From: Candidatus Melainabacteria bacterium 17Bon1m
GTDB taxonomy: Bacteria; Cyanobacteriota; Vampirovibrionia; Obscuribacterales; Obscuribacteraceae
NCBI GenBank assembly: GCA_032128875.1
Contig: JAVLKG010000003.1
Span: 97,008-161,007, forward strand
DNA: 64,000 nt
Reading direction: 5' to 3'
The notes under the pieces were generated by a model. The model searched no databases, had not been told where the DNA came from, and worked only from the letters and a program-made list of their open reading frames with translations. Below are positions 32,584 to 64,000 of the stretch, piece after piece (positions within the stretch are counted from its first letter, which is position 1; the number at the start of each line of letters is the position of its first letter). The position numbers were made by a program, and so were the translations under genes.

Positions 32584-34014
32584 TCACATAAGTATGCCCT
32601 GGAACGGAGCAGCAGCCATTCTCAAAAGCACGTTTGTTGTTGACGCTTGCAGCGATTCACGTGCGTGCTCAGGGTGTTCTGCTCGATAGGATGCGAATCC
32701 GCGATCCATGAAGCGCACGTCTTCCGGATCATCACCTTGCGTTCCTGTGCCGCCGTAGCCCAAGAAGCCAGGGTGACCCCAGCGCGGATCGGGACTGTAT
32801 TGGAAACGACCGGCTTGCTCGCGCAGGTATTGTTCGCTAAATCCTGATGCACGTCCGAGATAGCCGTATTGCCAGTTCCCGTAGGCTTCGTATTCCATAT
32901 TGGTCACATTGTTGCCTTGTCCGGTGGTCTTCGGATCCCAGTCTCCACCATCGAATAGGCTTCTCATCTGTAGAGAAACAGCGGCGCTGCCGGCAACTGG
33001 GGCGAATTCCGTTTGGGTTCTAAAGCTCGCTGCGCGATCCAGATTTCTCTGCATGTCCAGGTTCGCTGGAACTTCGCTAATCATTTGCGTTCTCAAAGCC
33101 GCTCTGACTTGGTCAGAACTTGCATCAAGTCGATTGCCGGCTGCGTCGGTTACAACGCGCGAGTCTGCTGTTTTTCCTGATGTCACTGTCATACCGTTGT
33201 TAAGCTCGCGTCGAGCGAATTGGGGTGAGTCCGGCTGGTCATAATTGTTGACGAGGACATTGCCACTTCTGTCCGCATTGACCGTATAATTGCGACCAAG
33301 CTCTCGGCCATTGCGATCTACAGCGGAGTAAAGGGGCTTGCCGTCGCTGTTGCGTTGATTGTTGAAGGAGTAGGTAACGCCGGAGCCATCGGTGTAACTG
33401 CGCACCATTGCACCGTTCTCATTGCGTTCCAATATTAGGTTCCGGCTTCGGCCTCCGCGATCTTCGATGGAAATGTTTTCTAAGTTTCCCTCAATTCGGC
33501 GAGTAGTCTTGCCGCCATTAACTGCTGCATAATCAGTGGTTTCAGTGCCATCTGCAGTTGTGGTTCGCACTATGCCGGTCTCACGATCCTTCATGCGGAC
33601 AGCGCCATTTTGGTCGAATCGAAGCATTACCCCTTCAGTCTGTGCGGGGTTTCTCGCATTGGAATAGTGGTCGCCACGGCGAGTGTATTCATTTCCATTG
33701 ATGTCGACAAAGCGAGTTATGTCATTGCCGCTGCGCTCTATCGTCGGTCTCGCTATTCTGTCATGAGACTGAAATCTTTCAAGAAGAAATGTTTGGGCGA
33801 TTCGACTTTCTTGTAAGAGCGAGTCGAAAAGCTCAAAACGAGGCAAATGTTGCGCGCTTAGGTTTGCCTCGCGTATTTCGGTGTTCCGCAGCAAGCTGTT
33901 GTGCGAGCTCGTCGCCTGGGCAAGCTCCTGCCACCAGGCATTGGTGTTGTCGTCGCGGGAATTATCGGGACGAACACTTTCGTGCCGCTCGCGTTGGGAG
34001 TCTCTTTCAACCAT
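32584..34014 (-). CDS. Protein with C-terminal polymorphic toxin type 44 (Ntox44) domain
   Basis: GGDWDPK ... YEAYGNWQYGYLGRASGF..L...AG..Q ... GDDPED...MDRG; beta-rich repeat-like middle region. Confidence 0.85.
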   Translation of the reverse strand: MVERDSQRERHESVRPDNSRDDNTNAWWQELAQATSSHNSLLRNTEIREANLSAQHLPRFELFDSLLQESRIAQTFLLERFQSHDRIARPTIERSGNDITRFVDINGNEYTRRGDHYSNARNPAQTEGVMLRFDQNGAVRMKDRETGIVRTTTADGTETTDYAAVNGGKTTRRIEGNLENISIEDRGGRSRNLILERNENGAMVRSYTDGSGVTYSFNNQRNSDGKPLYSAVDRNGRELGRNYTVNADRSGNVLVNNYDQPDSPQFARRELNNGMTVTSGKTADSRVVTDAAGNRLDASSDQVRAALRTQMISEVPANLDMQRNLDRAASFRTQTEFAPVAGSAAVSLQMRSLFDGGDWDPKTTGQGNNVTNMEYEAYGNWQYGYLGRASGFSEQYLREQAGRFQYSPDPRWGHPGFLGYGGTGTQGDDPEDVRFMDRGFASYRAEHPEHARESLQASTTNVLLRMAAAPFQGILM

Positions 34015-34153
34015 TTTGGTAAGTTTCGAACGAGTAGGAGCGATGGAAATTGCCTACATCGTATGGAACAAGTTGGAAATATTGCGGGAGAACGTCTTCA
34101 CAGCGGTCGACGCCATGCGTCGACCCTACAGGAGCTTAGCGGCAGAACAGTAC

Positions 34154-35026
34154 TTAGCGTTTAATTACTTCGACCGAGCACTCGGAGCGTTCGGCAATTG
34201 CTTCGGATACGCTGCCGATGAGCATTCTGTCCACCCAGCCTTTGCCTTTGCAGCCGCTTACGATAAGGTCTGCGTTGAATTTCTTTGCGCCGTCAACGAC
34301 AACATCACGCGGATCGCCTTGCAAGATTTCAAACTCAACCGAGGCTTTAGGTAGTTTCGTCCGGAGCAGCTCGCAGACTTGCTTTAAGTGCACTTCGGCG
34401 TCGGCGATTTGCTTGTTTCTGAACGTCTCCAGCGCCTGTATTTCGTGCGTGTCTTGCGCTTCGTTCATGTATTCTGCAAGGCTGGGAATGGCTGTTGTGC
34501 ACTTAATGTGCGTCCCTTCTTTCCATGGACGCGAGCCGATTCTCTCGACGACGTGGTCGGAAAATGGGGAATCGTCGAGGGCGAGATAAACCCTTGTTTC
34601 TCCTTCCTTTGCTTGCTTGTTATTTCTCACGACTCTGACCGAGCAAGTTGCTGTGACAACCAGTGAATGTGAAACTGAGCCCATCATCACCTTCTTGATG
34701 CCTCTCAGTCCACGGGAGCCGACGATGAGCAAGTCTGCCGGCCAGCGTTCGGCATATTGCAGAATTTCTGATTTCGGGTTGCCCTGGCTTACTGTGCCGA
34801 TGATGTGCGCGCCTTGCGGCATTTTTTCTTTTAAAATTCCCACTGCATGGTCGACTACTGTTTGCGCCGAAGCAAGCATTCTTTGCACCGTAGGCGGTGG
34901 CGAAAACGAAGTGTCTACTACGCTGAGAATCTGAAAGGACGCATTGTCAGGCCAGGGTGAGCGAAGTGTTTCATTTATCGCGGCTTCGGAATGTTCGGAC
35001 CCATCACAGGCGAGCAGGATTTTCAT
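34154..35026 (-). CDS. Tandem-domain universal stress protein
   Basis: MKILLACDGSEHS, DLLIVGSRGLRG..MGSVS, second domain DLIVSGCKG..IGSVS...CSVEVI. Confidence 0.95.
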   Translation of the reverse strand: MKILLACDGSEHSEAAINETLRSPWPDNASFQILSVVDTSFSPPPTVQRMLASAQTVVDHAVGILKEKMPQGAHIIGTVSQGNPKSEILQYAERWPADLLIVGSRGLRGIKKVMMGSVSHSLVVTATCSVRVVRNNKQAKEGETRVYLALDDSPFSDHVVERIGSRPWKEGTHIKCTTAIPSLAEYMNEAQDTHEIQALETFRNKQIADAEVHLKQVCELLRTKLPKASVEFEILQGDPRDVVVDGAKKFNADLIVSGCKGKGWVDRMLIGSVSEAIAERSECSVEVIKR

Positions 35027-35112
35027 TTCAAACCTCGATGAAGTTGCGGATCAGAACCATTAGGTCGGCGAAAATGGAAGTTGTAAGGGCGTTTTCGAAC
35101 TGCGGTGCGCAG

Positions 35113-36768
35113 CTATGTGGTTTGCGGCTGTGGTGCTGGTGTCATTCTGTACATCAGCGCTGTCGCGTCCGGACCGCAGCTCTTGAATTGTTCCAGCCCC
35201 TCAATCTCGAAAACCTTACCTGCGCGCTGCATGTCATCTCTGATTGTTGCCAGGTAGAGCCTGGTGGAGTGGTCTATTAATCCCAGCGAGGGCATGCAAT
35301 GCACAACGACCCTTTTCACGTGCTCTGGAATTGTATCGAGAATGGTGCGGGCTTTTAAAGAGTTGAAACAATGAAAAGTGTCTCCGACGTAGACGTCCAT
35401 GACATCGCCTTCGATTTCGGTTTTTTGAATCGGAGAACGCGCCAGCGCGCCCATACTTAAGCCTGCCTTTTTGGCGTAATACAGAAGGACAAATGCTTCG
35501 AGGAGCATTCCTGCGCTAATGCCGAGCATGAGGTCTGAGATTAGCGTCACGAAGATGGTGACTGAGAAAATCGCCAGGTCGGCTCCGCCCAGCTTGATCA
35601 TGCTGCGCCATTTGTGGACGCCTGCCAGTTTGTAGCCAATATGCATGAGAACGGCGGCGAGTGCAGCAACCGGAATCATGCGGATAATGTTGCCTGCAAA
35701 CAGGAGAAAACCGATGAGAAATAGAGCGTTGTAGAAGTTGACCCAAGCGGTTCTGCCGCCGGAAACAATGCAGGTAGTGCTTTTGATTATGCCGGGGATG
35801 ATAGTGAGGCCCCCGACCAGGCTGGAGCAAATGTTGGAGACGCCCATGGCAAATAGGGTTCTGTCCGGATCGGACTTTCGGTGAAAAGGATCGATTCGAT
35901 CTACAGCTTGCACGGTCGCCAACGATTCTGTGCCGTCGACAAATGTGAGCATGAAAATGAAGAGGATGACTTGAGGCAGCATGGGCAGCGCTTTTAATAA
36001 GTCCTGAAAGTCGGGGAAGGCAAAACCATGCTCGATCAAATTGTCAGGGATCTTGACGAGAAATTGCGGCTCCAAGTGATAGAGATGCCCTAAAACTGCA
36101 CCTACTGCTACAACCGTGAGCTGCGGCGGAATGTACTTGAGTGGTCCGCGCCTTAATGAAGTTAGTTGGAAAAGCAAGAGTAGGCAAATTACGCCAATTG
36201 AGAATACGCTCGGATTGAGGTGATTGGCGATTTCAGCTGGTGTTTCGAAAATTACTGGAAAGAAGTCGTGTGCGAGGAATTTGCTGCCGACGAAGTTTGG
36301 GATTTGTTTGGAAAACAATAGAAAGCCGATCGCGGCGAGCATTCCGTGAATCGCAGCCATTGGGAACATGCGGCTGAACTTGGCTGCTTTTAGCCAGGTC
36401 AAAATTATCTGAGTAACGCCAGCAAGCATGATTACACAAAGCACGACATGGTAGCCGCGCTCCATGTCACCTTTGCCAAGGTCAGTGATCGCTGTGAAAA
36501 GGACAGGCGCAAGACCTGCGGCGGGACCGCAGATAGAGACGTAGGAGCCGCCCAGGAATGGAAAGATGAGCCCGGCGATGATTTCTGAGGTAAGCCCGCA
36601 AATTGGCGGTGCTCCGGAGGCGAGGGCGATGCCGAGTGAGAGCGGCACGCTGACGAGGGCGACGACGAGCGCGGCCAGAACGTCATGCCGCCAATGCTTC
36701 AAGCCCGCCAAGCCGTTTTGTGGTGGCGCCTGATAAAGCGGCGGCCGCACTTTACTTGCTGTTTCCAT
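35113..36768 (-). CDS. SulP/SLC26 family anion transporter
   Basis: VALVSVPLSLGIALASGAPP, GPAAGL, ESLAT..AVD, STAS-like C-terminus (IDHS). Confidence 0.93.
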   Translation of the reverse strand: METASKVRPPLYQAPPQNGLAGLKHWRHDVLAALVVALVSVPLSLGIALASGAPPICGLTSEIIAGLIFPFLGGSYVSICGPAAGLAPVLFTAITDLGKGDMERGYHVVLCVIMLAGVTQIILTWLKAAKFSRMFPMAAIHGMLAAIGFLLFSKQIPNFVGSKFLAHDFFPVIFETPAEIANHLNPSVFSIGVICLLLLFQLTSLRRGPLKYIPPQLTVVAVGAVLGHLYHLEPQFLVKIPDNLIEHGFAFPDFQDLLKALPMLPQVILFIFMLTFVDGTESLATVQAVDRIDPFHRKSDPDRTLFAMGVSNICSSLVGGLTIIPGIIKSTTCIVSGGRTAWVNFYNALFLIGFLLFAGNIIRMIPVAALAAVLMHIGYKLAGVHKWRSMIKLGGADLAIFSVTIFVTLISDLMLGISAGMLLEAFVLLYYAKKAGLSMGALARSPIQKTEIEGDVMDVYVGDTFHCFNSLKARTILDTIPEHVKRVVVHCMPSLGLIDHSTRLYLATIRDDMQRAGKVFEIEGLEQFKSCGPDATALMYRMTPAPQPQTT

Positions 36769-38428: not shown

Positions 38429-38920
38429 TTAATAATTGAAAGTCTTCGCCAGCGAGTTCCAGGCGCGGTCGTACCAGTGTTCTTCTTGTTCTTGCTGGGC
38501 TACGTACGCGGCTTTCTTCTGGGCGACTTTGTCCTCAAATGCCTCATCTTGCTGGACTCCGAAATCCAGTACTCCATCTTCCTTGTCATGGGCTTTGGCT
38601 GCAGCTAGTTTCGCATCGATAACTGCTTGCTCTTCCTTCTTTTGAATGATTGCCTGTTCTTCCTTTTTCGCGATTATCGCTTGTTCTTCCTTTTGTTGAA
38701 CTATGGCAGCGGCCTGTTTTTCTTTGACTGCTGACCCGGCAAGAAGGTGACCTTCTTCATCGGTGAGCTGCATGGTGCCGAGTTGTTGACTTGCTGTATC
38801 AGTCGCATTCATTTTTTTCAGGTAGACGGCTCTAGACTCTTCCGGAGTCATTGCGCTGAAATTTGCAGAATCTTCTTTTGCTAGAACATTTTTCTTTTCA
38901 ATAATTTCGAGATTGTTCAT
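38429..38920 (-). CDS. Hypothetical protein with KEEQAII repeats
   Basis: AGGAG before ATG 38920; KEEQAII/KEEQAVI repeated three times. Confidence 0.75.
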   Translation of the reverse strand: MNNLEIIEKKNVLAKEDSANFSAMTPEESRAVYLKKMNATDTASQQLGTMQLTDEEGHLLAGSAVKEKQAAAIVQQKEEQAIIAKKEEQAIIQKKEEQAVIDAKLAAAKAHDKEDGVLDFGVQQDEAFEDKVAQKKAAYVAQQEQEEHWYDRAWNSLAKTFNY

Positions 38921-42396: not shown

Positions 42397-45300
42397 GTGG
42401 ACTTTTTCAAATCCAAACAAACCCTTCACCGTTATCCGACAGACTTCCTCATTGGCGATTTGCTAGTGAAGGCTGGAGTTATCAGCCAGAGCAAGCTCGA
42501 TGAAGCGATAAAGCTCTCAGGTGCCAAGCACTTGCAACTCGGTCAGATGTTGATTATGAGCGGTGCCATCAATGCCGCGCAGCTGCAGGCTGCTGTCGAT
42601 GCACAATCGCTGGTCAGAGATCGCACTATCGACCTCAATGAAGCACTCAAGGTTTTAAAACAAGCTTGCAAATCTGGGCAATCGATCGCTGATGTAATTT
42701 CCTCTGGGTCCACCAGAGCGGCATCCGGACCCACTAACAAGCTTGGCGAAGTGCTGCTGGAAGCCGGACTGATTAACTCCGATCAATTCTCGAAAGCAAT
42801 GCAGCGCAGCCTGGCAACGGGCTTACCGCTCGGTCGTATTCTGGTTCTCAATAATACTTTGGCAGATGCGATCCTCAGCATGGCACTTGATTTGCAAGTG
42901 CGCGTGCGCGACGACATGCTTACTCGCGAGGAGGCGCTCGACGCTTTACGCAGTGCCGCTGGTATCGAAGGCGATGAAATGCCCGATCCCAATCGTGTTG
43001 CCCAGGCTCAAGCAGCTTTGAAGGCTCCTCGCAAACACGGGGTGCGCATCGGTGAAATGTTTGTTCGCGCTGGATTGCTCACCGAAACAGACGTTATGAA
43101 TGCCTTGGAAACAGGTCTGGCTACCGATCAACTTATTGGACAAGTTTTGGTCGGGCAAGGATTTATTACTGACCAAATTCTCGAAGCCGCCCTCGGGCTG
43201 CAGAAGATGGTCGATGGCAACCATGTGGACGTGGATAAAGCAATTGATACGCTTTCTATGATCCAAAGCCAGGGGATTACGTACGACGAAGCAGTCGAGT
43301 CCTTGCAAATTGAGGAAACACCGACCACAGAAACGATCAGTTTCGATCACATGCTGGTGCTTGCTCGTGTGATGACTGAAAACGAGATCCATGAAGCCGT
43401 TGCGCATGCCATGGAAGATCCGAAGATTGTCGGTCAGATTTTGCTTATGACGGGTCACCTCGAAAAGAGCACTGTTAAAGCTGCACTGAGAGCACATTTC
43501 CTATTGCAGAAAGGCGTAATTTCGCAGGACGACGCCGTCGTTGGATTGGACTACACAATGCATAGCTCCAACAAGCTGTCTTTTGATGGTGCGCTTCAGG
43601 AGCTGGGTTGGGACATCTCGACCCTGCCGAAGGATGAGGTCGATCCAGAAACTCGCGCGATGGAAGAAGCGCGTAAAGATTTTGGTGTCTCTAGTGATGA
43701 TGAACTTACCAAATTCGTCGATAGAGCCAAGCCGGATTCTTCATCAGATACCGGGGAGTCCGAACCCGTTGTAGCCCCGGAAAAGGTAGAAGAGAAAGAA
43801 GAATTTTCGCATGCGACCGCAGACGAGCTACAGGTAATTTCCGGGACATACCAGAAAGTGGAAGGTTCGGCGGAAGTCACCGGCCAAGCCGAAGAAGACA
43901 GTTGGGATGTGCCGGACGATGAAGCTATCAATAAGACAGAACAGACTGAGGAAGCACCCAAACGTTCGCTTTCCGGATTGCTGTCTCATGAGGATCTAAA
44001 ACCGTTAGATGCTGATGAAGTGATTAAGGCTCAAACCAAATCTGATTCCGCTCCACCCAAGCTAGGTGGTAAGTTTGCTAATTTGCTGGGAGGGGACGAA
44101 CCTCCAGCGAAAAAACCTGGTTCTGCTGCCGATAAGGAAAAGGCTGAAGCCGAAAAAGCGAAGGCTGAGAAGGAAGTGTCCGATAAAGCCGCTTCTGACC
44201 GTGCTGCAGCAGAAGCGCTTGCAGAAGAAATTCGCGCTGCTGAAAAGGCGGCTTCCGATAAGAGAGCGGCGGAAAAAGCTGCTGCCGATAAGGCTGCGGA
44301 AGAGAAAGCTGCTGCTGAGGAAAAAGCAGCAGCCGAAAAGGCTGCTGCAGAGAAGCTCGCTGCCGAGAAAGCCGCAGAGGAAAAGGCTGCGGCAGAGAAG
44401 CTCGCTGCCGAGAAAGCCGCAGAGGAAAAGGCTGCGGCAGAGAAGCTTGCTGCCGAGAAAGCTGCAGAAGAAAAGGCAGCCGCCGAAAAGGCTGCGGCGG
44501 AGAAGGCAGCCGCAGAAAAAGCTGCTGCCGAAAAAGCTGCCGCGGAAAAAGCTGCCGCAGAAAAAGCAGCTGCATCAACTCCTACCCCCGTGTCAGCTCC
44601 GGCAGCCGGCGGACTTAAGAAGGTGGGGGCGTTCCAAAGTCTTTTGTCCGAAGAACCTGCAAAGAAAGCAGATTCGCCTGCCGCTGCACCCGCCACTCCA
44701 GTTGCATCACCTGCGCCCTCACCGGCTGCGACCACAGGTGCTCCCGTCGCTGCTCCTATAGCAGCGTCCGCCGCACCCTCTGCGATACCTTCAGGAGCCG
44801 CAACCCCGGCAACGCCGAATGTCGCAGCAGCACTATCTGCTTTGACAAGAGCGCATCCACCCACTTCGGGTGCACATCCTCAACAAACCATTGCGCCTGC
44901 AGCAGCTGCATCACCTGCGGTGGCGCGCCCGGCAGCTCCGGCTGGCGCTCCAGCATCAGGCGCCACCCTTGCTCAACCCCCAGCTCGTCCGGGAATTCCT
45001 GCACCGGTTGCAGCTCCAGGTCTCGCCAAAACTCCAGCCCCAATAGCAGCACCTGGTGCTGTACGTCCTCCGGCGCAACCGGCTCCCGGCGTAGCTACCG
45101 CACCCGCAGCACATTCCGGTGGAGCAAATGGTAGCGGGCAACCGCCTGCGACACCTCGTGTGACACCACCCAACGGGGCGTCACAAACTGCGGCTCCGGC
45201 TGCAGCGATAGCACCACCGCCCGCCGCAGCTACGGGGCAAACCACCGCAGTTAAATCGGAAGATGATGTGAAAGGCGCGCTAAGTGGAGCTTATGCAAGA

Positions 45301-45783
45301 CTTGCCGAGAGCTATTACGACCAGGGCAACTATGCAGAAGCTCTTGGTTTGTACGAGAAAATTCTCGCCGTGCGCGAGCAGGAATTGGGTGAGAGCGATC
45401 CGGAATTGATTTCCGATCTCGCCAATGTCGTGCGTGTGCTGTGCGTGCAAAACCGCTTCGACAGTGCCGAAAGCTACGTTCGACGCATTATCGGGATTCT
45501 CGAGATGACTCAACCGGACGACGTGCAAAAACTTGCGGATGCTCTGAACACACTGGCTCAAATCTACTTCCAGCAAGACAAGTTTGATCAATGTCTGCCG
45601 GTTTTGGATCGTTCAGTCAAGCTCAAGCAGCAAGTTCTTGGCGAAGATCACGTCGACATGGCTGATTGCTACCGCGACTACTCACGTTTGTTGAGAAAAC
45701 TCAATCGTAAGGAAGAAGCAGAGCAGTATTACAGCAAAGCCAAAACGATCTTGGGCAAGGCTCCAAAGCAAGCTGTGGTGTAG
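42397..45783 (+). CDS. Multidomain protein: four MshEN-like units, acidic/AAEKA/Pro-Ala linker, C-terminal TPRs
   Basis: Repeated xGxxLxxxGxI motifs (e.g. [24 protein letters not shown]); kinesin-light-chain-type TPRs ([19 protein letters not shown]). Confidence 0.88.
44341..44475 (+). repeat. Three tandem 45-bp units encoding [15 protein letters not shown]
   Basis: Near-identical units start at 44341, 44386 and 44431, within a longer 15-bp AAAEK array. Confidence 0.9.
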
Positions 45784-45790
45784 CTTTTGC

Positions 45791-46369
45791 TTAGAAGTTG
45801 CCGTTAGCGAGCATTCGTGCAATTTGCTTGGGGTTCATCTTCTTCGGTTTTTTGCCGAAATTTTGGCCATAAAAATAGTTGGGATTATTTCCCCAACCAT
45901 TGTTAAAGCCTGAATTTAGAGCTGCATTCAAATTGCGATTCCAATTATTGCCATTCCAATTGCAATTTTGATTGTTGTTCCAACCATTGTTCCAACCGTT
46001 ATTCCAGTTGGCATTCCAATTGTTGTTGCAGCCATTATTCCAGCCAGCGTTCAAATTGTTGTTCCAGTTATTGTTCCAATTGTTTCCCCAGTTATTTCCG
46101 GGCCCACAATTGTTCCAGCCACTATTCCAACGGTTGTTGCGGCGGTGGTTCCAGTTTTGGTTGCCGTTTCGGCCGCAGTTATTGTTCCAATTCCAGTTTC
46201 CGTTCCGGCGACCGTTATACCAACCACGGTGGTTTCCGTTATTGCCTCGGTTTCCATTGCATCCTGAGTTTCCATGGCCACCCCATCCGTGATGACCCTT
46301 AGCTTCAGCGGCTTGTCCAGCAAATGCCAGTGAGATTACTGCCGCGAGCAAGATTGAAGAAACCTTCAT
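45791..46369 (-). CDS. Secreted Asn/Trp/Gly-rich repeat protein
   Basis: AGGAG before ATG 46369; signal peptide ending AGQAAEA; WNNN / GWNN repeats. Confidence 0.85.
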   Translation of the reverse strand: MKVSSILLAAVISLAFAGQAAEAKGHHGWGGHGNSGCNGNRGNNGNHRGWYNGRRNGNWNWNNNCGRNGNQNWNHRRNNRWNSGWNNCGPGNNWGNNWNNNWNNNLNAGWNNGCNNNWNANWNNGWNNGWNNNQNCNWNGNNWNRNLNAALNSGFNNGWGNNPNYFYGQNFGKKPKKMNPKQIARMLANGNF

Positions 46370-46468
46370 AATGAGCTCCTCATATTTCGCGTGACAAAAC
46401 CAAGCGACGACTATCCAAAAATTATGTTCCGGCCACAAGATCACTTGAGGACCATCGCTGAAAACGTA

Positions 46469-46508: not shown

Positions 46509-46551
46509 ATTATCAGCTGATTGATTTGATTGACTTGATTTTGATGGCTGA

Positions 46552-46839
46552 TTAATACCAGCGCGAATTCATCTGCCTATTTATTCTCTTACGGTCTTGT
46601 CTGTCAAAACGACCGTTACCGTTCGTATCCCAACGATTGTTCCAGGCGTGATATCTATGGTTGTTACGCCAGCCGTAGTGATTACCCCTGTTCCAGCGAT
46701 TCCAGTTGTTGTTGTTGTTATGCCAGCCATAATGTCCATGGTGGTGTCGCCAACCATCGTGATCTCGCGCTTCTGCAGCTTGTCCAGCCAAGGCGAAAGT
46801 CATGACAGCAGCGAGAAAAATTGATGCAATTTTCATCAT
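46552..46839 (-). CDS. Secreted Asn/Trp/His-rich small protein, paralogue of 45791..46369
   Basis: Near-identical signal peptide MKIASIFLAAVMTFALAGQAAEA; HYGW/NNW repeats; EF-loop-like DTNGNGRFD. Confidence 0.85.
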   Translation of the reverse strand: MMKIASIFLAAVMTFALAGQAAEARDHDGWRHHHGHYGWHNNNNNWNRWNRGNHYGWRNNHRYHAWNNRWDTNGNGRFDRQDRKRINRQMNSRWY

Positions 46840-47234
46840 CTAACCCTCGTATTTCTGTCTGCATGTTCAGACCGCGCGACGTCTTCTGAGTTCCCAGAAT
46901 GCTTTTGTTATCGAACATTTAGCGGAAACAGAGTTCTTTACATAAGTGCTGTTCGCGTTTGCGATCGATTTTTCTAGTGCTCGGTATTATTGTTTGGAGT
47001 TGTGGTTGAAGTTGTTTTGAGCGTTGCTATATCTTCCGATCATTTTGATTGAACAAATTCAAACGAGCGACGGATAATAAAATTTGTGGTTTTGGATTTT
47101 TTAGCCGCCACTGGCTGTGGTGGCATGATTTTCTGCGATCATATGATTGACGAAACGTCGGGAACATAGGTTAATGCCTTTGTGTCGTAGGGTTCATACG
47201 TTTTTTGTGCGGTTTGAGATTGAGGGAGGTTGTC

Positions 47235-47751: not shown

Positions 47752-47779
47752 AAGGGCGGGTAACACCGCCCTTTTATTT
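47752..47779 (+). terminator. Intrinsic terminator between convergent genes
   Basis: aagggcgg-GTAACA-ccgccctt followed by TTATTT. Confidence 0.75.
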
Positions 47780-49625
47780 ATTCAGTTATCTTCAAATCTT
47801 TGAGCGAACCCATGCCCTGGGTGGCTTTGAGACCTTGCTCAGCACCGCCCTGAGGCGTTTGGGCGATTTGTTGAGGTACTTGATGCGATGAGGCTTCGAC
47901 TGCTTCAGGCGTTTGTGGTGCAGTTGGTTTCGCGTGAGCCATCTTGTCACCAGCGGGCTGACTGTGGTGTTGAGGACTGTGGTGAGCGGTTTGAGCGTGA
48001 TGCGCAGGTCCGTGATGTGCCGGACTATGATGAGTCGGACTGTGATGCGCCGTGGTGTGATTTCCGCCAGCATGATGCGCAGCTGGATTTGCGCCATTCG
48101 CATGTGAGGCATCAGCAAGAGTAGAGTGACTTTCGCCGCCAGGCATGCTGAATTTCTGCCCGGGGTGAATCATGCTGGGATTGTCGCCGATCACACTGGC
48201 ATTGCGATCATATAAATGATGCCAATTTTGACCACCGCCCAAATGATCTTTGGAAATGTTCCAGAGGTTGTCGCCTGGCTTGACTGTGTAATCGGCATTA
48301 GCGGTGATCTGACTGTGATCACCAAGGTTGAGTTGATCGCCAGGATGAATAAGGTTAGGATTCGAGCCAACAACGTCGTGATTCATTTTATAGATGTCAG
48401 GCCATTTCGTGCCGTCGCCCATATGGCTCTTAGCGATGTCCCACAGGTTGTCGCCCGGTTTGACAGTATAGGGAGCAGCTTCAGCAGGGTTTTGAGCAAC
48501 TTGCTGACCAGCCGCCGCGTCACCTTGCTGTTGGAGTACTGACTGCTGATCTCCTGCTTGTGGTTGTACGGTTGTTTCTGTGCGCGGCAATTCCATCTGC
48601 TGACCGACCGAGGGCTGTTGTTGATAAGCAGGTTGCTGTGGCATCTGAGCCTGTGGAATATTTTGTCCGCCACCTTGCATGGTGCCTAGTTGAGGTCTGA
48701 ATGCGCCACCGCCGTTGTCGAACGCAATTTGCTGACCTTGAACAAAATTATCGCCACCGCCGATCATCTCGTGCGGATTGCTGAGTCTAGGATCCATGGA
48801 TTGGTACATTGGCTGACCGAAATCGGCATGACCACCGACGTTCAGGTCTGTTTGTGCCATGTCACCGAAGTCCGGGAATTGCGACATAGTATTGTTGCTG
48901 GTTGAAGCCAGCGTGTCGAAACCTGTGAACTGACCGGTCATCTGCCCAGCCATATTCGTGCCCATGGTGTTCAATCCCATTGCGCCGAATTGCTGCCCAA
49001 GAGTGGCGAAAATCGGTGCGTTGGAAGGAAGCATTGAAAGACTCATCGGCATGTGCTCGCCGATGCGACCCAGTGATGAAGCCAATCCAGCGTTGGCATG
49101 ATTCAACCAATCGGCGAAATTGAAAGCACCGATGAAGTCCTGCAATGGCATGAATAGCGCGCCCAGAGCTTCGAAGAAGGAGTTAAGCAGACCAATATGA
49201 CCTGGCATCCGCATGATCAGCTGGATAATCGGCGATATTGGTTCGGCCCCAGGTGTAAGTGCCGCAAGCGCTGCATCGGCACCAGGAGCAAATGCTGCAG
49301 CTTCGGCTCCCGTAGGCACAATTTGCAGTTGAGCCATAGGAGCTGCATCAAAAGACAAACTCTGCGCACTATTGAAGGCGAGTTCGCCACCGGTATTAAA
49401 GTTGATAGCTTGGTTGGAAAAACTCAGAGAATCGCCGCCGAAAGTCTGAAGATCAGGCAAGCCGGCATTACCATTGGGCGCGAAAAACTGATGCGCCGCT
49501 CGGACATCGAGAGGTTGGGAAAGACTTTGGTTGACGTTTTGGAAAACTTCACGGCCGGAAAATTGTCCGGCTTTCATGCCTTCACTAAGTCCGTCTCCAA
49601 AATTTGGAATATCAGGTGCAGCCAC
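47778..49625 (-). CDS. LysM peptidoglycan-binding protein (two LysM domains, His-rich tail)
   Basis: YTVKPGDNLWDIA..W..IY..N...IHPGD and YTVKPGDNLWNIS...IHPGQ; HHSP/HHGP repeats; no signal peptide. Confidence 0.9.
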   Translation of the reverse strand: MAAPDIPNFGDGLSEGMKAGQFSGREVFQNVNQSLSQPLDVRAAHQFFAPNGNAGLPDLQTFGGDSLSFSNQAINFNTGGELAFNSAQSLSFDAAPMAQLQIVPTGAEAAAFAPGADAALAALTPGAEPISPIIQLIMRMPGHIGLLNSFFEALGALFMPLQDFIGAFNFADWLNHANAGLASSLGRIGEHMPMSLSMLPSNAPIFATLGQQFGAMGLNTMGTNMAGQMTGQFTGFDTLASTSNNTMSQFPDFGDMAQTDLNVGGHADFGQPMYQSMDPRLSNPHEMIGGGDNFVQGQQIAFDNGGGAFRPQLGTMQGGGQNIPQAQMPQQPAYQQQPSVGQQMELPRTETTVQPQAGDQQSVLQQQGDAAAGQQVAQNPAEAAPYTVKPGDNLWDIAKSHMGDGTKWPDIYKMNHDVVGSNPNLIHPGDQLNLGDHSQITANADYTVKPGDNLWNISKDHLGGGQNWHHLYDRNASVIGDNPSMIHPGQKFSMPGGESHSTLADASHANGANPAAHHAGGNHTTAHHSPTHHSPAHHGPAHHAQTAHHSPQHHSQPAGDKMAHAKPTAPQTPEAVEASSHQVPQQIAQTPQGGAEQGLKATQGMGSLKDLKITE

Positions 49626-49854: not shown

Positions 49855-51333
49855 TCAGATTGCTAGATTATTGGAGAGTGATTTGCTTAAAATTTTAGCC
49901 AAAAAGCCGGCCGCTTCCAATTCCCAGGGTTGCCACGGCAGGGAGATGCCTTTGGCTGTTTCCTTCCACAGTTCAAATGAAGTCCTTGGATAGAGCCGCT
50001 CCCCGTAGGGGCTTTTATTTGACGGCTTAAATGGGTCGCCTGCCCAATTAACAGACTTGGACATTTCTGGCCGGAGCCACATAAGCCAGGACTTATGGTG
50101 ATTTGGAATTTTTGCTGCCAGCAAACCACAAGCATAAGCACCTATGTCGTGACCATAGCGAGCGGGCAAGTCATCGCAAGCAAAGACTTCTTCATTGGGT
50201 CCGCATTCCAGCCATTCAATCAGTGATTGCAATGTTGGATTATCCGGCGTCGCATTTTTCCTCAGAATAGTTCCGTCGGTAATAAATACGTTGCCTGTAC
50301 TCTGAATCAACTCGTCCAGTGAAGGGTGGCTCTGTACCATTGATTTCAGGTCGTGAGAATCAAGGAGATTTGCCGCAATATCTTGAATCGTCGAAAGATA
50401 GCGCAGCTTGATTTCGCTTTCGGCAAGTTTGTGCAGATCGGAAAGTCGATTAGAGCATAACTGCGAAAGAGTTTGATAGAAGCTAAACTCCTGCAATGTA
50501 AAAGTGCGTGCTGACTCATGGTGACACGCAATTAGTCCCCAGAATTTCCCCTTCTCGAAAAGAGAAATCGACATCGATGCACGCACATTCATGTTGCGAA
50601 GATACTGCAAATGAATTGGAGAGACACTGCGCACAAACGAGAAACTCAAGTCGAGCGGCATCATGCCTGGCTCTTCGACAATGCGTGATTGAGTGCCGTC
50701 GACATCTGAAATTACGCGAAATCGATTTCTGATATAAAGCTCGCGCGCTTGCTTTGGAATATCCGTATGAGGAAAGTGCAGTCCTTTATATGAAGGCATA
50801 CTCTCCTTGCGGGATTCGGCGATTACTGCTCCATTCCAATCGCGATCGAATTTATACACTTTTACGCGATCAAACTTCGAAATGTCTCGAACAGTGTCGG
50901 CGATGAGCTGTGCAAGCTGCTGTTCGGAAGTCGTTGCAGAAAGTTTGATTCCAAGGCTGGACAAAGTAGATGTTAGGTCACCGTTTTCGGCGGTACTCGC
51001 TAAAAGATCCAGGTATTGTTCGTCCACACTAGAGTGCCAGAGCGCGTTCACCTTCTTGCCGGATTTTAGTGTCAGAACGATGCTGGGTCGCAAGAGTTCT
51101 GAGCTAGATTTGTCCACCTTGTTTAACTCGTTCACGTTAAAGAAGGTCGAAATTTTTTGTCCGATTATCTCTTGTGCGCCGACGTCGAGGATTTCTCGCA
51201 CGTTCTCGCTAGCGCGAGTAATCTGCCCGTCTTTGCGGTATGCAATCAGTGCGCCGAATTCCTGCACGGAGCCAGGAATATGTATCTGCTCTTGATCGCA
51301 GTTGGTGATGTCTACTTCCGGTTTCTTGGTCAA
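49855..51333 (-). CDS. bphP: Bacteriophytochrome photosensory module (PAS-GAF-PHY) with no output domain
   Basis: TNCDQEQIHIPGSVQ (biliverdin Cys), FDRVKVYKF, HFPHTDIPKQAR, SPIHLQYLRNM, WGLIACHH, WAGDP, PRTSFELW. Confidence 0.93.
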   Translation of the reverse strand: MTKKPEVDITNCDQEQIHIPGSVQEFGALIAYRKDGQITRASENVREILDVGAQEIIGQKISTFFNVNELNKVDKSSSELLRPSIVLTLKSGKKVNALWHSSVDEQYLDLLASTAENGDLTSTLSSLGIKLSATTSEQQLAQLIADTVRDISKFDRVKVYKFDRDWNGAVIAESRKESMPSYKGLHFPHTDIPKQARELYIRNRFRVISDVDGTQSRIVEEPGMMPLDLSFSFVRSVSPIHLQYLRNMNVRASMSISLFEKGKFWGLIACHHESARTFTLQEFSFYQTLSQLCSNRLSDLHKLAESEIKLRYLSTIQDIAANLLDSHDLKSMVQSHPSLDELIQSTGNVFITDGTILRKNATPDNPTLQSLIEWLECGPNEEVFACDDLPARYGHDIGAYACGLLAAKIPNHHKSWLMWLRPEMSKSVNWAGDPFKPSNKSPYGERLYPRTSFELWKETAKGISLPWQPWELEAAGFLAKILSKSLSNNLAI

Positions 51334-58510: not shown

Positions 58511-59998
58511 ATGACATTGAATCGAGACAGCTGCTATGAGGTTCTTCGCGCGCGAGATCCGCGGTTTGACGGGGTTTTCTTTGTAGCGGTGAAGTCTACC
58601 AAGATTTATTGCAGAACCGTATGTACGGCAAAAACGCCGATGCTGAAGAATGTCACGTTCTATTCAACCGCTGCTGCTGCGGAAGATGGCGGGTATCGTC
58701 CGTGCTTGCGCTGCCGCCCCGAATTGGCTCCGGGCAATGCGTCGGTTGACGCGGTCAGTCGATTGGCTGCAATTGCACTTAACAGAATCGAAGACGGTGC
58801 GCTGTCGGAGTTTGGTGTGGATGAGTTGGCGCTTGAGATGGGCATTAGCGGACGTCATTTGCGCAGAGTCATCGAATCGGAATTCGGGGTTTCTCCGATT
58901 CAATTGGCGCAGACGCAAAGGCTGTTGCTCGCCAAACGATTGTTGACCGACACAAACTTGCCAGTAACGGAAATTGCGTTCGCGAGTGGTTTTTCCAGCG
59001 TTCGACGGTTCAATTCGCTGTTTCAAGAACGCTACAAGCTAAACCCAACGCAACTGAGAAAGCGTAGAAGTGCGCAAGATGCGCCGTTCTTGACGTGTGA
59101 AGTGAGCTACCGACCACCATTTGATTTTGAGGGATTGTTGGCGTTTCTTTCTTATCGTGCCTGTCCTGGAGTTGAGCTCGTGCAGGATGGCGCGTACATT
59201 CGCACTGCCTCATTCGGGAAGCATTCCGGGTGGTTGGCCGTACGGCAAAATGCGCAGAAAAACACTTTATCGATTCAACTCGCCAACTCGCTCGCACCAG
59301 TTTTGCTGAGCGTCGTTGCACGATGTAAGCGTTTGATGGACACTCAAGCAGACCCCTCAATCATTGCAGCGACGCTGGGCGAGCTTTCAAAGGGGCGTGA
59401 GGGAGTTCGCGTGCCTGGTGCGTTTTATGGCTTTGAGGTTGCACTCAGAGCCATTCTGGGGCAACAGGTGAGCGTGAAAGCGGCAAGTACTCTGCATGGA
59501 CGGATTGTCCAAAAGTTCGGCGTTGCAATTGAAACACCTTTCCCTGAATTAAACAGACTCGCTCCATCGGCTGAAACGCTGGCAGCGCTGGAGCCCGAGG
59601 ATTTAAGCGGCATGGGGATTACAGGCGCGCGCATTAATTCGATAATCGCGATTTCTCAGGCTGTTGCAAGTGGTGCTCTTTCACTAGAACCGGGGCAAGA
59701 TGTGGAACAGACGTCAAACAAGATCAAGGCTTTGCCTGGCTTCGGCGAGTGGACGGCTCAATATATAGCGATGCGCGCACTCGCATGGCCGGATGCTTTC
59801 CTTCATTCTGATCTCGGAATCAAGAAAGCGCTCAATATGACTAAGGATAAGGAAATTTTGCAGCATGCGGAGCGTTGGTCTCCGTGGCGTTCATACGCGG
59901 GTATGCATCTGTGGCGCTCGTTGGAAGCCAAGGCATTGGATGCGAAACCGTCAATTTTGAGTTCTCCGAAAAGGAAAGTGGCGAGGGCAAAGGCATGA
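58511..59998 (+). CDS. alkA: Ada-AlkA fusion (Ada Zn domain, AraC HTH, 3-methyladenine glycosylase II)
   Basis: ARDPRFDG.FF, IYCRTVC, YRPCLRCRP, FASGFSSVRRFN, RAILGQQVS, LPGFGEWTA, WSPWRSYA. Confidence 0.95.
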   Translation: MTLNRDSCYEVLRARDPRFDGVFFVAVKSTKIYCRTVCTAKTPMLKNVTFYSTAAAAEDGGYRPCLRCRPELAPGNASVDAVSRLAAIALNRIEDGALSEFGVDELALEMGISGRHLRRVIESEFGVSPIQLAQTQRLLLAKRLLTDTNLPVTEIAFASGFSSVRRFNSLFQERYKLNPTQLRKRRSAQDAPFLTCEVSYRPPFDFEGLLAFLSYRACPGVELVQDGAYIRTASFGKHSGWLAVRQNAQKNTLSIQLANSLAPVLLSVVARCKRLMDTQADPSIIAATLGELSKGREGVRVPGAFYGFEVALRAILGQQVSVKAASTLHGRIVQKFGVAIETPFPELNRLAPSAETLAALEPEDLSGMGITGARINSIIAISQAVASGALSLEPGQDVEQTSNKIKALPGFGEWTAQYIAMRALAWPDAFLHSDLGIKKALNMTKDKEILQHAERWSPWRSYAGMHLWRSLEAKALDAKPSILSSPKRKVARAKA

Positions 59999-60501
59999 CA
60001 GTTTTCTACACAGTTATCGACAGCCCTATCGGGCAGATTACGCTAACTTCAGTTGGAGTTTCGCTCGCAGGTCTGTACATGGAATCGCATAAGGGCATGC
60101 CAACCGTTGACGAATCCTGGGTTCGCGATGATAGTGTGAAACCGTTCGCACTTGTCAGAGAAGAGTTGGCTGCGTACTTTGATGGCAAGCTTGAGCGTTT
60201 CACTATTCCGTTGAAACCGATTGGCACAGAGTTTCAACTCAAAGTTTGGAACGAATTGGTGAACATTCCCTTTGGTCAAACAATTTCTTATGGAGAACTC
60301 GCACGACGTGTCGGCAATCCCAAAGCGAGTCGTGCTGTGGGTTTGGCAAATGGACAAAATCCGATTTCAATTATTGTTCCTTGCCACCGAGTCATTGGCG
60401 TGAATGGCAAGCTCACCGGATATGGTGGCGGGCTTCCACGGAAAGAGTTTTTGCTTCAACATGAAGGCGCAGCGCCAGCCAAGCAGCTGACGTTCGTATA
60501 G
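59995..60501 (+). CDS. ogt: Methylated-DNA--protein-cysteine S-methyltransferase
   Basis: GTEFQLKVW, IPFGQTISYGELA, RAVG.AN..NP, PCHRV; ATGA overlap with alkA. Confidence 0.97.
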   Translation: MTVFYTVIDSPIGQITLTSVGVSLAGLYMESHKGMPTVDESWVRDDSVKPFALVREELAAYFDGKLERFTIPLKPIGTEFQLKVWNELVNIPFGQTISYGELARRVGNPKASRAVGLANGQNPISIIVPCHRVIGVNGKLTGYGGGLPRKEFLLQHEGAAPAKQLTFV

Positions 60502-60558
60502 CGCTGGAAGTGAGCTTCCTTTTACAGGTCTAAGGATGGCATATCTAGTGCTATGAAA

Positions 60559-60581
60559 GGGCGCGTGCAACGCGCCCCCAC
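60559..60581 (-). repeat. REP-like palindrome / stem-loop after the calpain-like gene
   Basis: Minus strand GTGG-GGGCGCGTTGCACGCGCCC. Confidence 0.45.
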
Positions 60582-60583
60582 GC

Positions 60584-62200
60584 TTATTGAGCCAGGACTT
60601 CGAAAGTCACGTCGCTGAAATTGTTTTGGAACTGTTGCAGCGATATTCTCGTTGTGCCGCTTGTTGAGTCGTTGTTTGCGCCCCAGGGGTTGCGCACAGT
60701 GACCATGCCGCCGCCTTGTCCGTCAGGCTCGAAGTTTGTGATGCTGTATGCGTGGCGCGTTGGATAGCCGTCAGTCGACGTGCTCGAGAATAATCTAGGG
60801 TTGATGCCGGTTGTTACTGTTGCGCGTGAATCCGAGTTTAGCGCGCGCTCTAGACGGCTTGCTAATTCGCTATCCGAAGAGCTTACTGTCTCAGTGCTTC
60901 TGCCTGTCAGAAGTTCTGTCGCCCATGATGTTTGACCGCCTGCTCCTGCGTATTCTGTGGGTGTGTTTCCGCCACTTTCCATCGCGACTCTCGCCCGACG
61001 GAACATATTGGCGTGTTCACTCTGATACTGTCCAAACGCTCTTTCAAGTATTCCAGCCCATGTACCGTATTTGTGTCCGCCGTTGTATAGTCCGCGCTCG
61101 GCGTCAGTTGGTGCATTGATAGTAACTGGGTTGGCTGTATCGCCCGGGAAAGTGACGGTGTAAGTGCCGTTGCCGTTGTCGTGAATCATGTCACGAATGG
61201 CTTGTGGATTCGATGCTGCAAGTGATGAAACAGCAGCCAGATAGTAGCAATCACCAATCGTTCCTTGCACAACTGCATCTGGTGTGATGCTGAGAAGTGG
61301 ATCGTCAGGAGTGGCGAAGAGATTTGAATTCAGTTGATTTAGCTGACCTTCTCTCGTCCGGCTCGTGGTGTTTGACACCATAGTCTCTGTCTGTCCTGGG
61401 ATAGATTGGTAAGTTTGATTCAAATACTCTGCAACGTCGGTGGTGCTGATGCTGCTTTCGAAACCCCACTCATCGTTGCTCGCGCCGATTATATTGTCGA
61501 AGCTGTCGCTCACGCGCTGCAGGTGTGCGCGGTCGGTCTCGGAAATACTAGTACTTTGACGAGCGGCATCGAGCTCAGTGCGGGCGATATAGCCGTCATG
61601 GTCGGTGTCAAATCTATTGAAATTGGCTTCGCCTCTAAGTACTTCCATGGCGGGTGTAAGCGTGTCGCGCGCTGCAGTTTGCCGACCGAAGGCCTGTATA
61701 TCTCCGCGTGTTACACCGTCATCGTCGAGGGTGGAATATTCGTCGCGAGACAGTAACTGCATTGTGTTTCGACTGCTATACAGCGCTGCTACTGTTTGTG
61801 CGTCTTGATCTCTGAAGTCTCTATTTTGCACGGCAGCAGAGAGTTCGTCGGCACCCAACCACTGATCGTGATTAGTATCGATCCTGTCGAAAAGCGCCTC
61901 AGCGCGTTGCGCAAATTGGGCGTTGGTGAGCGTTGCGCTGGGTACCGGAGTGTTGGTTTGCTCGGCGCGCATTGCATTTCTTTCAGCAGCATCTTCGTCG
62001 AACAGCTCGAGACCGCCCAGCAGTGCCGTTGTGCCAGCGTCTTCGCGACTGTTCTTGTTGCGCGTGCGAGTGAGATTTGTCATCTCCTCGCTGCTGACGT
62101 CATTGCTCATTGCCGAGCTGGCGTCGTTCTTTCTCTCGCTTTTTTCGGCTGATCTTTCTGCGTTTTCGGTACGTGTTTGATTATTTCTATCGGAAGGCAT
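60584..62200 (-). CDS. C2 (calpain-like) cysteine protease with N-terminal EF-hands
   Basis: QGTIGDCYYLAAVSSLA, WAGILERA, HAYSI, VRNPWG; EF loops DTNHDQWLGADE and DTDHDGYIARTE; AAGGAG RBS. Confidence 0.9.
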   Translation of the reverse strand: MPSDRNNQTRTENAERSAEKSERKNDASSAMSNDVSSEEMTNLTRTRNKNSREDAGTTALLGGLELFDEDAAERNAMRAEQTNTPVPSATLTNAQFAQRAEALFDRIDTNHDQWLGADELSAAVQNRDFRDQDAQTVAALYSSRNTMQLLSRDEYSTLDDDGVTRGDIQAFGRQTAARDTLTPAMEVLRGEANFNRFDTDHDGYIARTELDAARQSTSISETDRAHLQRVSDSFDNIIGASNDEWGFESSISTTDVAEYLNQTYQSIPGQTETMVSNTTSRTREGQLNQLNSNLFATPDDPLLSITPDAVVQGTIGDCYYLAAVSSLAASNPQAIRDMIHDNGNGTYTVTFPGDTANPVTINAPTDAERGLYNGGHKYGTWAGILERAFGQYQSEHANMFRRARVAMESGGNTPTEYAGAGGQTSWATELLTGRSTETVSSSDSELASRLERALNSDSRATVTTGINPRLFSSTSTDGYPTRHAYSITNFEPDGQGGGMVTVRNPWGANNDSTSGTTRISLQQFQNNFSDVTFEVLAQ

Positions 62201-62281
62201 GGGAGCACTCCTTGCCGACGCAACGCTATGCCGATTGCACTGTGTGCATGGACAAACTGCGCTGATGTCTGGCTAGTAACT

Positions 62282-62328
62282 GGGGTGGGTTCGAGGGGAA
62301 AAGGGTAAGGGGGACCGGGGAATCCGGG
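62282..62328 (+). other. Putative G-quadruplex-forming sequence
   Basis: Seven runs of at least 3 G with loops of 1-5 nt. Confidence 0.6.
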
Positions 62329-62711
62329 AAACCTGGAAAGGTGGGTGCTAACAATATAGGTGCGCATTGGGAAAATTTTCGGGAGCCGGCCCAGTTGGGC
62401 TCCGGCATTGCGTTGCAGGCAAGAGAGCATGCACACTCACCGACTAATGCTTACAGATTGGCTGAGAAAGCGGAATCTGCGGCTGCTCCCGTACTCTTGG
62501 TTAGCCGCTTAGCGAAATCAGAGGGTAATTGATCAAACGCCACCAAGAAATCAATTGCGCTTCGCAATCGATGAATTTTGGACGCCTTTGGTAAATTTAC
62601 GAAGGGTGTTGCAACAAAATTGCAAACAAAGAGCCGGAACATCTAGGTACGGCTTTTGTGCCGTCACATATTTCGAAATACCAGAGCAGAGGAAACATCA
62701 TCATGGGTTGA

Positions 62712-64000
62712 GGCGTCCCGTCACCAGGCCGCAGGCGGCCTGATTGTCTACCGGAGGTAGACAACGGCAATCGTAGAGACAATAGTCACATCATTCCTGG
62801 TCAGGGAGATCGTTACCCGCAGCCAGGGCGTGATCCAAACAACCCTTATGTCAATCCAGGTTTTGAGATTGTCGACAGCGGCCGCACGATTACTCCCAAA
62901 GATAATCAATGGCAGAAAGGCGGTGAGAAAGCAGACTTCGACGCGGCGGTTAAGCGCGTCACTAATTGGGATGCAGACAACTTCCAAGGCGCCTATGATG
63001 CTGCGGCTAAGAACGGCACGGGTGTGACTTTTGTTGTCGGTTCGCTGACCAAAAAGGACACGCAAGATACGCTTAAAAACCTAGAAGCGCTCAAAGCGAA
63101 AAATCCCGATATGCAGATCGTTTTCTTTGATACGGACAAGATCAAAGACGATCCTAAGTATCAAGGTCTGCGCGACTGGGTTCAGAAGAACACAAACAAT
63201 GACGACCTCGCCTTCATGGCGCAATACAGCGTGCGCCCGGGCGAGGGCGGTAAGCCTGTGGGAGACAAGCTCATCAGCACGCACTGGGGCAGTGATACAA
63301 CCACCCTGGACGAACAACAGAAGTACGGCAAGATGTACACGGAGAAGTTTAAAGGGCAGTTCAAAATTCCAGAGGGGCAGCCTGAAGTTACGCCGCAAGT
63401 AAAGCCGTCTGATAAACCGGCGGTTCCGCAAAACCCGCAGCAAGCAGCGATTGCCGAAGCCGATAAGATAAATCAGCAGGCAGTTTCCACTGATCTGGAT
63501 AAGGTCAACGCTGCGATTGCAGAGGCTCAGAAGGCTGGAGAGGCTGGTGCAAAACAGCTTCCAGAGCTGTTTGCGCAACAGAAGAAACTGCAGGCAATGC
63601 GTGAAGCACCGGCACGAACGAGAAAAGAGTATGCACAAAAACTGTATGCAGATGCGGTTGCACTGAACGGAAAAACTGATAAACAGTCGCTAGAACAGCA
63701 AGAAACGAATGTGCTGGAGGCCCACAGGCAGATCAACGACGCCAATGCGAAAGTGCCTGGTTATTTCGCTACAGATGCAGCGAAGCAAGAGCTGAAGGCA
63801 ATGGGGTACAGCGATAAGGCGATTGAAAACCTAGGCAAGGCGCCTGCCACTGGTGACAAGAGCAAGTATTGGCTTAGCGATAATCAGTATGGAGTTCCTG
63901 AGGCCGAGAAGCAAAAGATGTACGATGCCGGTGATAGCGCTGCATTGGAAGCTGCGACGAGAGAAGCGATTGAAGCTGCGATTGCTGATGCCAAAGCCAA
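62712..64000 (+). CDS. Large hypothetical protein running off the right edge; 5' end ambiguous
   Basis: Frame is stop-free from 62712 to the window end (...NPGFEIVDSG...FQGAYDAAAKNGTGVTFVVGS...). It is preceded in frame by ATG-GGT-TGA at 62703-62711. Confidence 0.8.

Follow-up and report, generated by a model that had tools for sequence, protein, structure and literature searches.

The window analysed here is a 64,000-nucleotide stretch (G000:C3:97008-161007) of the 7.55-Mb, 93% complete genome of Candidatus Melainabacteria bacterium 17Bon1m (G000), an uncultured, non-photosynthetic member of the order Obscuribacterales, which is related to the cyanobacteria. An earlier note had pointed to a short peptide shared by the N-terminal regions of five proteins encoded in it, and had read the peptide as an export or chaperone-recognition signal. 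All five 8-mers translate exactly at the positions and on the strands claimed (Table 1). The consensus offered with them, L-[PG]-x-hydrophobic-[EQ]-[LI]-x-D, fits only three of its own five peptides, missing LPDLQTFG and NPGFEIVD. We refer to the element as the LP motif and describe its distribution in G000 and in other genomes, including G011, G007 and G002; the order is divided into family 1 and family 2 (family-2 genomes G025-G027). Genes were called on G000 with our own script, based on hexamers and Shine-Dalgarno (SD) sequences, which gave 6392 genes with approximate start codons.

Table 1. Features discussed in the text. Coordinates are window positions unless a contig is named.
Feature	Coordinates	Strand	Description
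Ntox44 protein	32584..34014	-	476 aa, leaderless; C-terminal Ntox44 domain (Pfam PF15607, E 7.5e-10)
Motif copy 1, LPRFELFD	33823..33846	-	Residues 57-64 of the Ntox44 protein; best-supported of the five
Orphan protein	38429..38920	-	163 aa, leaderless, no known family
Motif copy 2, LGTMQLTD	38759..38782	-	Residues 47-54 of the 163-aa protein
LysM protein	47778..49625	-	615 aa, leaderless, two LysM domains
Motif copy 3, LPDLQTFG	49437..49460	-	Residues 56-63 of the LysM protein
Calpain-like protein	60584..62200	-	538 aa, leaderless; EF-hand and calpain-like (Peptidase_C2) domains
Motif copy 4, LGGLELFD	61997..62020	-	Residues 61-68 of the calpain-like protein; degenerate
Right-edge gene	62703..64000	+	Ends at window position 64511, beyond the window; starts ATG-GGT-TGA after an SD sequence
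Hairpin, SECIS-like by position	62725..62742	+	Starts 13 nt after the UGA
Motif copy 5, NPGFEIVD	62853..62876	+	Residues 51-58 of the right-edge protein; degenerate, weakest membership
CesT/YbjN-fold genes g3375, g4231	G000:C4:597169-597648 and C6:239720-240187 (L249)		Small, acidic, TY-Chap1/YbjN

A matrix trained without the window contig scored copies 1 to 5 at 17.1, 10.9, 10.1, 5.0 and 5.2 bits, and the fractions of downstream decoy windows reaching these scores were 0, 0.002, 0.004, 0.042 and 0.038. On score alone, copies 1-3 are well supported and copies 4 and 5 weakly. Copy 1 is retained in all five other homologues of the Ntox44 protein, at 49-80% identity; identity in this family is 0.57 within the motif versus 0.33 before and 0.38 after it, and 0.66 in the rest of the protein. 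Copy 2 lies in a fast-evolving protein that is 39% identical to its G007 orthologue, with flanking genes at 85-94%, and its counterpart there reads LGNLELMD. Copy 3 is found in 25 of 26 close homologues of the LysM protein; in the LysM family motif identity is 0.86 versus 0.59 and 0.56 in the flanks. The calpain-like protein belongs to a family expanded across the order, and its named relatives are Obscuribacterales or Melainabacteria records. For comparison, 28 loci were selected on a match to the protease or to another C-terminal region, and their 223 open reading frames (ORFs) were scored. With the protease domain as the handle, five homologues from five other genera were retrieved in which a canonical LP motif is present (11.7-15.8 bits, residues 49-80), and copy 4 gains support from them; none of the family-2 calpain-like proteins in the 28-locus sample scored above 2 bits. 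At the site of copy 5, the G002 orthologue of the right-edge protein has a different peptide.

Across the 6392 genes the pattern of the earlier note occurs 10 times, seven of them at residues 41-80, as against 0.4 in position-preserving block shuffles. Three of these seven are window proteins and one (g1597) resembles an ordinary enzyme. In an unseeded enrichment of gapped 4-mers the top 60 were kinase and response-regulator motifs, the LP motif not among them, and the search was therefore seeded from this pattern. An iterated matrix gave 59 proteins at an in-sample false rate of 10%. Curation removed 10 with the look of ordinary enzymes or chance matches and added seven by eye, leaving 56 proteins (118-1797 aa) that fall into 37 BLAST groups. 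Their consensus is L(54)-P(44)-x-[LMV]-[SEQ]-[IL]-x-[DG], located at residues 46-95 (median 59, n=56) and often preceded by a short helix whose last residue is G or N.

Because this set was curated, the motif was also scored on held-out contigs and in a blind sample. On the held-out contigs (4995 genes), 34 genes reached 12 bits versus 5.8 expected from downstream windows, and 25 reached 14 bits versus 1.6 expected; the excess at 12-14 bits is present in all four held-out contig sets. The blind sample consisted of 40 evenly spaced 20-kb pieces (800 kb) of the closed genome of another genus. Here 5 of 611 genes reached 12 bits (0.84 expected), four of them encoding leaderless hydrophilic proteins and two having no homologue in G000. 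At 8 bits this sample showed no excess (10 versus 8.65 expected). The alternative that the earlier note had set against its own proposal, a motif equally frequent in shuffled sequence, does not describe these results: the motif is position-biased, exceeds background in both tests and is real as a class. It matches no Pfam or NCBIfam model, and a search for a second shared motif upstream of it gave a Gibbs score of 316, no better than shuffles (323 and 309). As far as we searched the motif is undescribed: no description of it or of secretion in the order was found in the literature covered, which was mostly open-access.

None of the 56 motif proteins has a signal-like stretch, compared with 1846 of 5568 proteins, a figure that is partly circular since hydrophilic N-termini served in curation; two of the 56 have a membrane-like stretch. 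A tight downstream partner gene follows five of the 56 motif genes versus 1385 of 5568. A Pfam scan of 54 motif proteins found a match in 12 and no family in 42, one of the 12 (a transposase helix-turn-helix) being later removed from the set. The recognised cargo consists of EF-hand arrays, calpain-like C2 protease, LysM, DPBB, ATLF-like metalloprotease, alpha/beta hydrolase and Tcp10_C domains, together with Ntox44. The next gene after that of the Ntox44 protein lies on the opposite strand, so there is no co-transcribed immunity gene. The ATLF-like zinc metalloprotease match, just over the cut-off, is at the C-terminus of the motif protein at G000:C16:19408 (L054:2828-3901).

The motif occurs in two settings. 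In the majority subtype the stretch before it is disordered and acidic-polar, and its last residue is D or G. In a helical subtype of about 19 proteins it follows a helical hairpin, and the end is often W, F or Y. The two subtypes look related, because intermediates (P0075, P0078 and g4548) combine the hairpin with a strand-type ending. A profile of the helical subtype found 78 matches among 1.84 billion proteins, some of them near copies of the training set, and 70 of the 78 start within the first 31 residues. By genome, it matched 16 of 24 in family 1, all three in family 2 and none of 13 outside the order. A longer profile, A3, was rejected as a test of the motif: it matched 24 genomes outside the order, with its best matches in the C-terminal LysM-like part, and also gave a few weak mid-model matches outside the order. 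Fold searches with the helical-subtype model found no match (best E 1.0, best Z 6.5), a result that shows neither novelty nor difference. In the ESM Atlas nothing was returned for the calpain N-terminus; for the helical subtype, type III effector and PopF/NolX clusters appeared at 0.83-0.88, below the reliability line and serving as leads only. In the 890-aa protein P0037 the N-terminal helical hairpin recurs about six times within the chain, and these repeats lack the LP peptide. Calpain-like and helical-hairpin proteins of family 2 (L075-L084, L128-L130; G025-G027) are leaderless and also lack the LP peptide; several of them have, around residues 20-35, a helix resembling L..E[VL][YF] that may be a different signal.

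Part of the motif set shares a promoter element. The direct repeat TGTCA-N6-TGTCA, which we take from its 11-base period to be of the OmpR/PhoB type, lies upstream of 10 of 54 motif-set genes versus 41 of 4112 others; in reverse orientation it precedes two of the 54. A box matrix trained on other genes only still found 12 of the 54, versus 70 of 4103. The other boxed genes are mildly enriched for the motif (4 of 70 versus 52 of 4033 at 8 bits, p 0.015). The products of many boxed genes are leaderless orphans of a similar kind in which the motif is faint, and the class is for this reason larger than 56. The whole TGTCA-N6-TGTCA regulon numbers about 50 genes, rich in leaderless orphans, with boxes upstream of g0238, g0265, g1737, g2280 and g5355 among others. 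No extracytoplasmic function (ECF) promoter was found at any of the 56 motif-set genes. Coverage in the RNA runs X1-X4 was flat and their contigs reached 137-156 kb; they behave as DNA and are silent on expression.

A leaderless protein needs a one-step export route, and several such routes were not found. For the type III and flagellar gates, FHIPEP (SctV/FlhA) is absent from G000 (93% complete), FliP from all 61 genomes of the order with positive controls, and the only two matches to the SctN-type ATPase in G000 are both of the ATP-synthase family. Type VI is represented neither by VipB (0 of 41 genomes) nor by Phage_base_V (none in G000). For type VII there is no WXG100 protein, and the only FtsK-family match is VirB4. 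No C39 peptidase of the double-glycine/PCAT kind was found and the motif matrix holds no GG. A search for type I found no membrane fusion protein over the cut-off in G000. Leaders bound by a RiPP recognition element (RRE; lasso or PqqA type), whose motif the LP motif resembles, were considered and rejected: the two PqqD matches over the cut-off sit in a PQQ-like operon and an unrelated operon. G000 does encode Tad and type IVa pilus machinery, with PilB/PilT/CpaF ATPases and three secretins. The Tad ATPase is more than 80% identical across the order, and Tad ATPases occur also in three families without any motif-profile match. A stand-alone Flp-like pilin gene, recognised by eye, lies at 26508-26726 (+) of the window, far from the Tad locus.

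Two paralogous chromosomal type IV loci were found, A (C1, ~791-814 kb) and B (C3, ~865-889 kb) (L095, L096, L072). Both contain a very large VirB6-like gene, a DUF2225 gene, and VirB3-like, VirB4 and VirB8-like genes; VirD4 is encoded in locus A only. The VirB6, VirB8, VirB3 and VirB2 labels were assigned from size, topology and gene order, with no family matches. For the outer-membrane core (VirB7/9/10) there is one weak TrbI/VirB10 match adjoining locus B, at E 4e-4, below the cut-off. VirB4 is present in 27 of 28 genomes of the order and in none of 13 others, VirD4 in 34 of 35 versus none of 116. VirB4 is 73-76% identical between the two families, gene order is conserved in both, and an Obscuribacterales VirB4 query had no match at E 1e-30 outside the order. 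The range of VirB4 and VirD4 matches that of the motif profile. The earlier note had proposed looking for such co-occurrence with a secretion locus across genomes: the type IV loci do track the profile across the order, within a single lineage only.

Candidate readers of the motif are encoded as well. Class I type III chaperones bind a beta-motif of the form hydrophobic-(x1-4)-hydrophobic-x-hydrophobic within the first 100 residues, according to the available part of PMC6114900. A hydrophobic-x2-hydrophobic-x-hydrophobic spacing is present in 55 of the 56 motif proteins, though the bare spacing is trivial, 3754 of 5568 proteins having one at residues 40-85. The genes g3375 and g4231 encode proteins of the CesT/YbjN fold (TY-Chap1 at 43.8 bits, cut-off 27). 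A Foldseek search with the g3375 model returned a cyanobacterial protein first, then ExsC, VecA, SicP and CesT, with E ~1e-4 for ExsC, SicP and VecA; the CesT Pfam model itself matched nothing anywhere, controls included. The two genes do not lie beside cargo, with one motif-set gene within 30 kb. TY-Chap1/YbjN proteins have been predicted as peptide-binding chaperones in another context, in the portion available of PMC9503650. A further candidate is DUF2225-B, a cytoplasmic protein encoded inside locus B and found, with it as the query, in 20 of 24 family-1 and none of three family-2 genomes. It is missing from the family-2 locus, and the LP peptide is likewise not seen in the family-2 proteins examined. 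We regard g3375, g4231 and DUF2225-B as candidate motif readers.

The right-edge gene has an unusual start. Its ORF lacks an in-frame start unless translation continues past the UGA at codon 3 (62709-62711). This UGA is conserved in G000, G011, G007 and G002, and paralogues of the protein have Cys-containing starts. The hairpin, placed like a selenocysteine insertion sequence (SECIS), has a z of -2.4 over a 60-nt stretch, compared with -2.0 in G011 and -0.4 (weak) in G002. G000 encodes tRNA-Sec, only six such start patterns exist genome-wide, and independent contigs give the right-edge sequence unchanged. The product matches no Pfam or NCBIfam family. Judged from these sequence features, the gene probably encodes a selenoprotein with selenocysteine (Sec) at residue 3, so placed that gene callers start it 107 codons late. 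A TGCAAC-AAAA-TTGCAA palindrome lies upstream of the gene (62560-62620, +) and of its paralogues (L066, L067); it occurs in only 2 of 4092 other upstream regions.

Several other genes of the window deserve mention. The gene at 42397-45783 (+) encodes 1128 aa in which MshEN-like segments recur (recognised by eye); the linkers, of Ala/Glu/Lys and of Ala/Pro, are long, and tetratricopeptide repeats lie at the C-terminus; similar proteins are common in G000. A bacteriophytochrome sensory module (PAS-GAF-PHY) without an output domain is encoded at 49855-51333 (-), in a non-photosynthetic host. Asn/Trp/Gly-rich low-complexity proteins with signal-like N-termini are encoded at 45791-46444 (-) and ~46550-46840.

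Three known systems and a group of toxin domains offer comparisons. The class I type III beta-motif (Tir-CesT, SipA-InvB and SptP-SicP in the sections available of PMC6114900) likewise follows an unstructured N-terminus on unrelated cargo, and a chaperone of the same fold is encoded here. The Obscuribacterales differ in lacking an export gate, in the fixed Leu-Pro start and the acidic or Gly end of the motif, and in chaperone genes that are not beside the cargo. By its location and residue spacing the motif resembles a chaperone-binding site of type III, yet it is not a type III signal, because the type III machine is absent. Legionella Dot/Icm with IcmSW (PMC10025392) and Xanthomonas VirD4-XVIPCD (PMC10100965) share with the order a large, scattered, leaderless repertoire and chromosomal VirB4, VirB6-like and VirB8-like genes with a coupling protein, the VirB10-like gene of the order being a weak match. 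In the accessible text of these sources the signals are mainly C-terminal or internal, the one N-terminal case being a heterologous luciferase; the Obscuribacterales, by contrast, have two paralogous loci, one with VirD4 and each with a DUF2225 gene. Vampirovibrio chlorellavorus, of the same class, has a T-type type IV secretion system proposed to deliver enzymes into another cell; that system is largely plasmid-borne, and no signal is described in the part of PMC4451040 available. Polymorphic-toxin trafficking domains, such as MIX, FIX, LXG and TANFOR, are N-terminal markers before variable C-terminal cargo such as Ntox44 and RHS. They are domains of 100-200 residues; the LP motif has eight, and no immunity genes are adjacent.

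The LP motif holds a biased position in fast-changing N-termini, where it is conserved; it is spread over unrelated cargo and genera and is partly co-regulated. The proposal of an export or chaperone signal stands in part: a lineage-specific, position-biased motif with beta-motif spacing marks leaderless, effector-like proteins, and the type III route falls away with the export-gate genes. We suggest that a large repertoire of leaderless, effector-like proteins may have the motif in common as a recognition site within an N-terminal export region, and the sequence comparisons moderately favour an export role of some kind. It would add a beta-strand to a cytoplasmic chaperone or adaptor, much as the type III beta-motif does, with g3375, g4231 and DUF2225-B as candidates. 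By elimination and from the distribution of the loci, bound proteins might then exit in one step through the two type IV loci, into the medium or a neighbouring cell. That the motif is an export tag, bound by a chaperone, that supplies a type IV system, with route and partner both putative, is a tentative reading to which we give slightly less than an even chance, and the specific scheme in which a chaperone hands substrates to the type IV machine is unlikely as drawn. The motif would help but is probably not the whole signal, because many similar proteins carry a degenerate copy or none.

Several observations weigh against an export tag. The motif has been lost in many paralogues: it fades among distant LysM paralogues, of which only 1 of 45 reaches at least 6 bits, and six other family-1 calpain-like proteins score at most 5 bits and one 7.3. 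Neither the five window genes nor the type IV operons are preceded by a strong TGTCA box. CesT/YbjN-fold proteins occur also in 6 of 14 control genomes and their closest structure is cyanobacterial, so that finding them is not specific. Most known type IV signals lie at the C-terminus, as the available portion of PMC10025392 has it. The co-distribution of type IV loci and motif reflects one lineage, not independent events. Of the cargo-bearing matches of the helical-subtype profile, 51 of 66 join one BLAST group, and this subtype may be one expanded family. In an AlphaFold model of it (predicted local distance difference test score, pLDDT, 81) a helix of the cargo domain (residues 65-76) begins at the motif, which argues against a single binding mode for all motif proteins.

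The modelled packing of this helix into the cargo domain, the largely connected family behind the helical subtype, the loss in paralogues and the scarcity of co-transcribed partners would also fit a motif that is not an export label. On this view an ancestral N-terminal domain, multiplied by duplication and domain shuffling, would begin with the motif as a conserved helix cap or strand; alternatively, a partner inside the cell, for instance a protease adaptor or a scaffold, would dock there. We consider this improbable, though deserving of weight: the motif persists in disordered N-termini of 37 unrelated groups without a shared domain, is more conserved than its flanks, and the cargo that can be recognised has peptidoglycan, RNA and other cells' proteins as its targets. 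If the motif is an export label, the route could instead be the Tad or type IVa pilus machinery, whose ATPases and secretins are present and whose Tad ATPase is so well conserved across the order, or a machine not yet recognised. Pilus-type systems normally take Sec or Tat substrates from the periplasm; the motif proteins have no signal peptide, and the occurrence of Tad ATPases in families without a profile match also makes this route rather unlikely.

Colicin translocation regions combine a disordered N-terminus with a short alternating strand, as here, and the genome encodes TonB_C proteins. On this analogy the proteins would be released by lysis and the peptide would be an import signal, a TonB-box-like strand read by target cells. 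Such a role appears very unlikely, since no immunity gene follows the Ntox44 gene, LysM and EF-hand arrays of up to 1797 aa are among the cargo, and the matrix failed to pick out signal-bearing receptors. Chance remains to be weighed, the motif being degenerate and hand-picked: two of the five window copies are near background, 17 sites were removed or added by eye, and the blind sample shows no excess at 8 bits. The excess at 12-14 bits in every held-out set and in the blind genome, the clustering of 70 of 78 profile matches at the N-terminus and the independent promoter-box enrichment largely refute chance for the class and leave it scarcely credible overall; it may still account for copies 4 and 5.

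Read as an export tag, the LP motif turns orphan proteins of the widespread, large-genome Obscuribacterales into a defined list of candidate effectors and opens a direct test of type IV substrate choice. At its widest, and doubtful as a whole, the picture is of an order without type III in which N-terminal signals of the type III kind, bound by CesT-fold chaperones or a DUF2225 adaptor, would direct 50 to several hundred effectors to a duplicated, vertically inherited type IV system; the Obscuribacterales would in that case inject prey or host cells, a habit so far unrecognised in them, and a selenoprotein with Sec at residue 3 would be among the substrates. If type III-fold chaperones do serve a type IV machine, the substrate-recognition module would be older than, and separable from, the injectisome, and a predatory or host-directed lifestyle would be suggested for the order.

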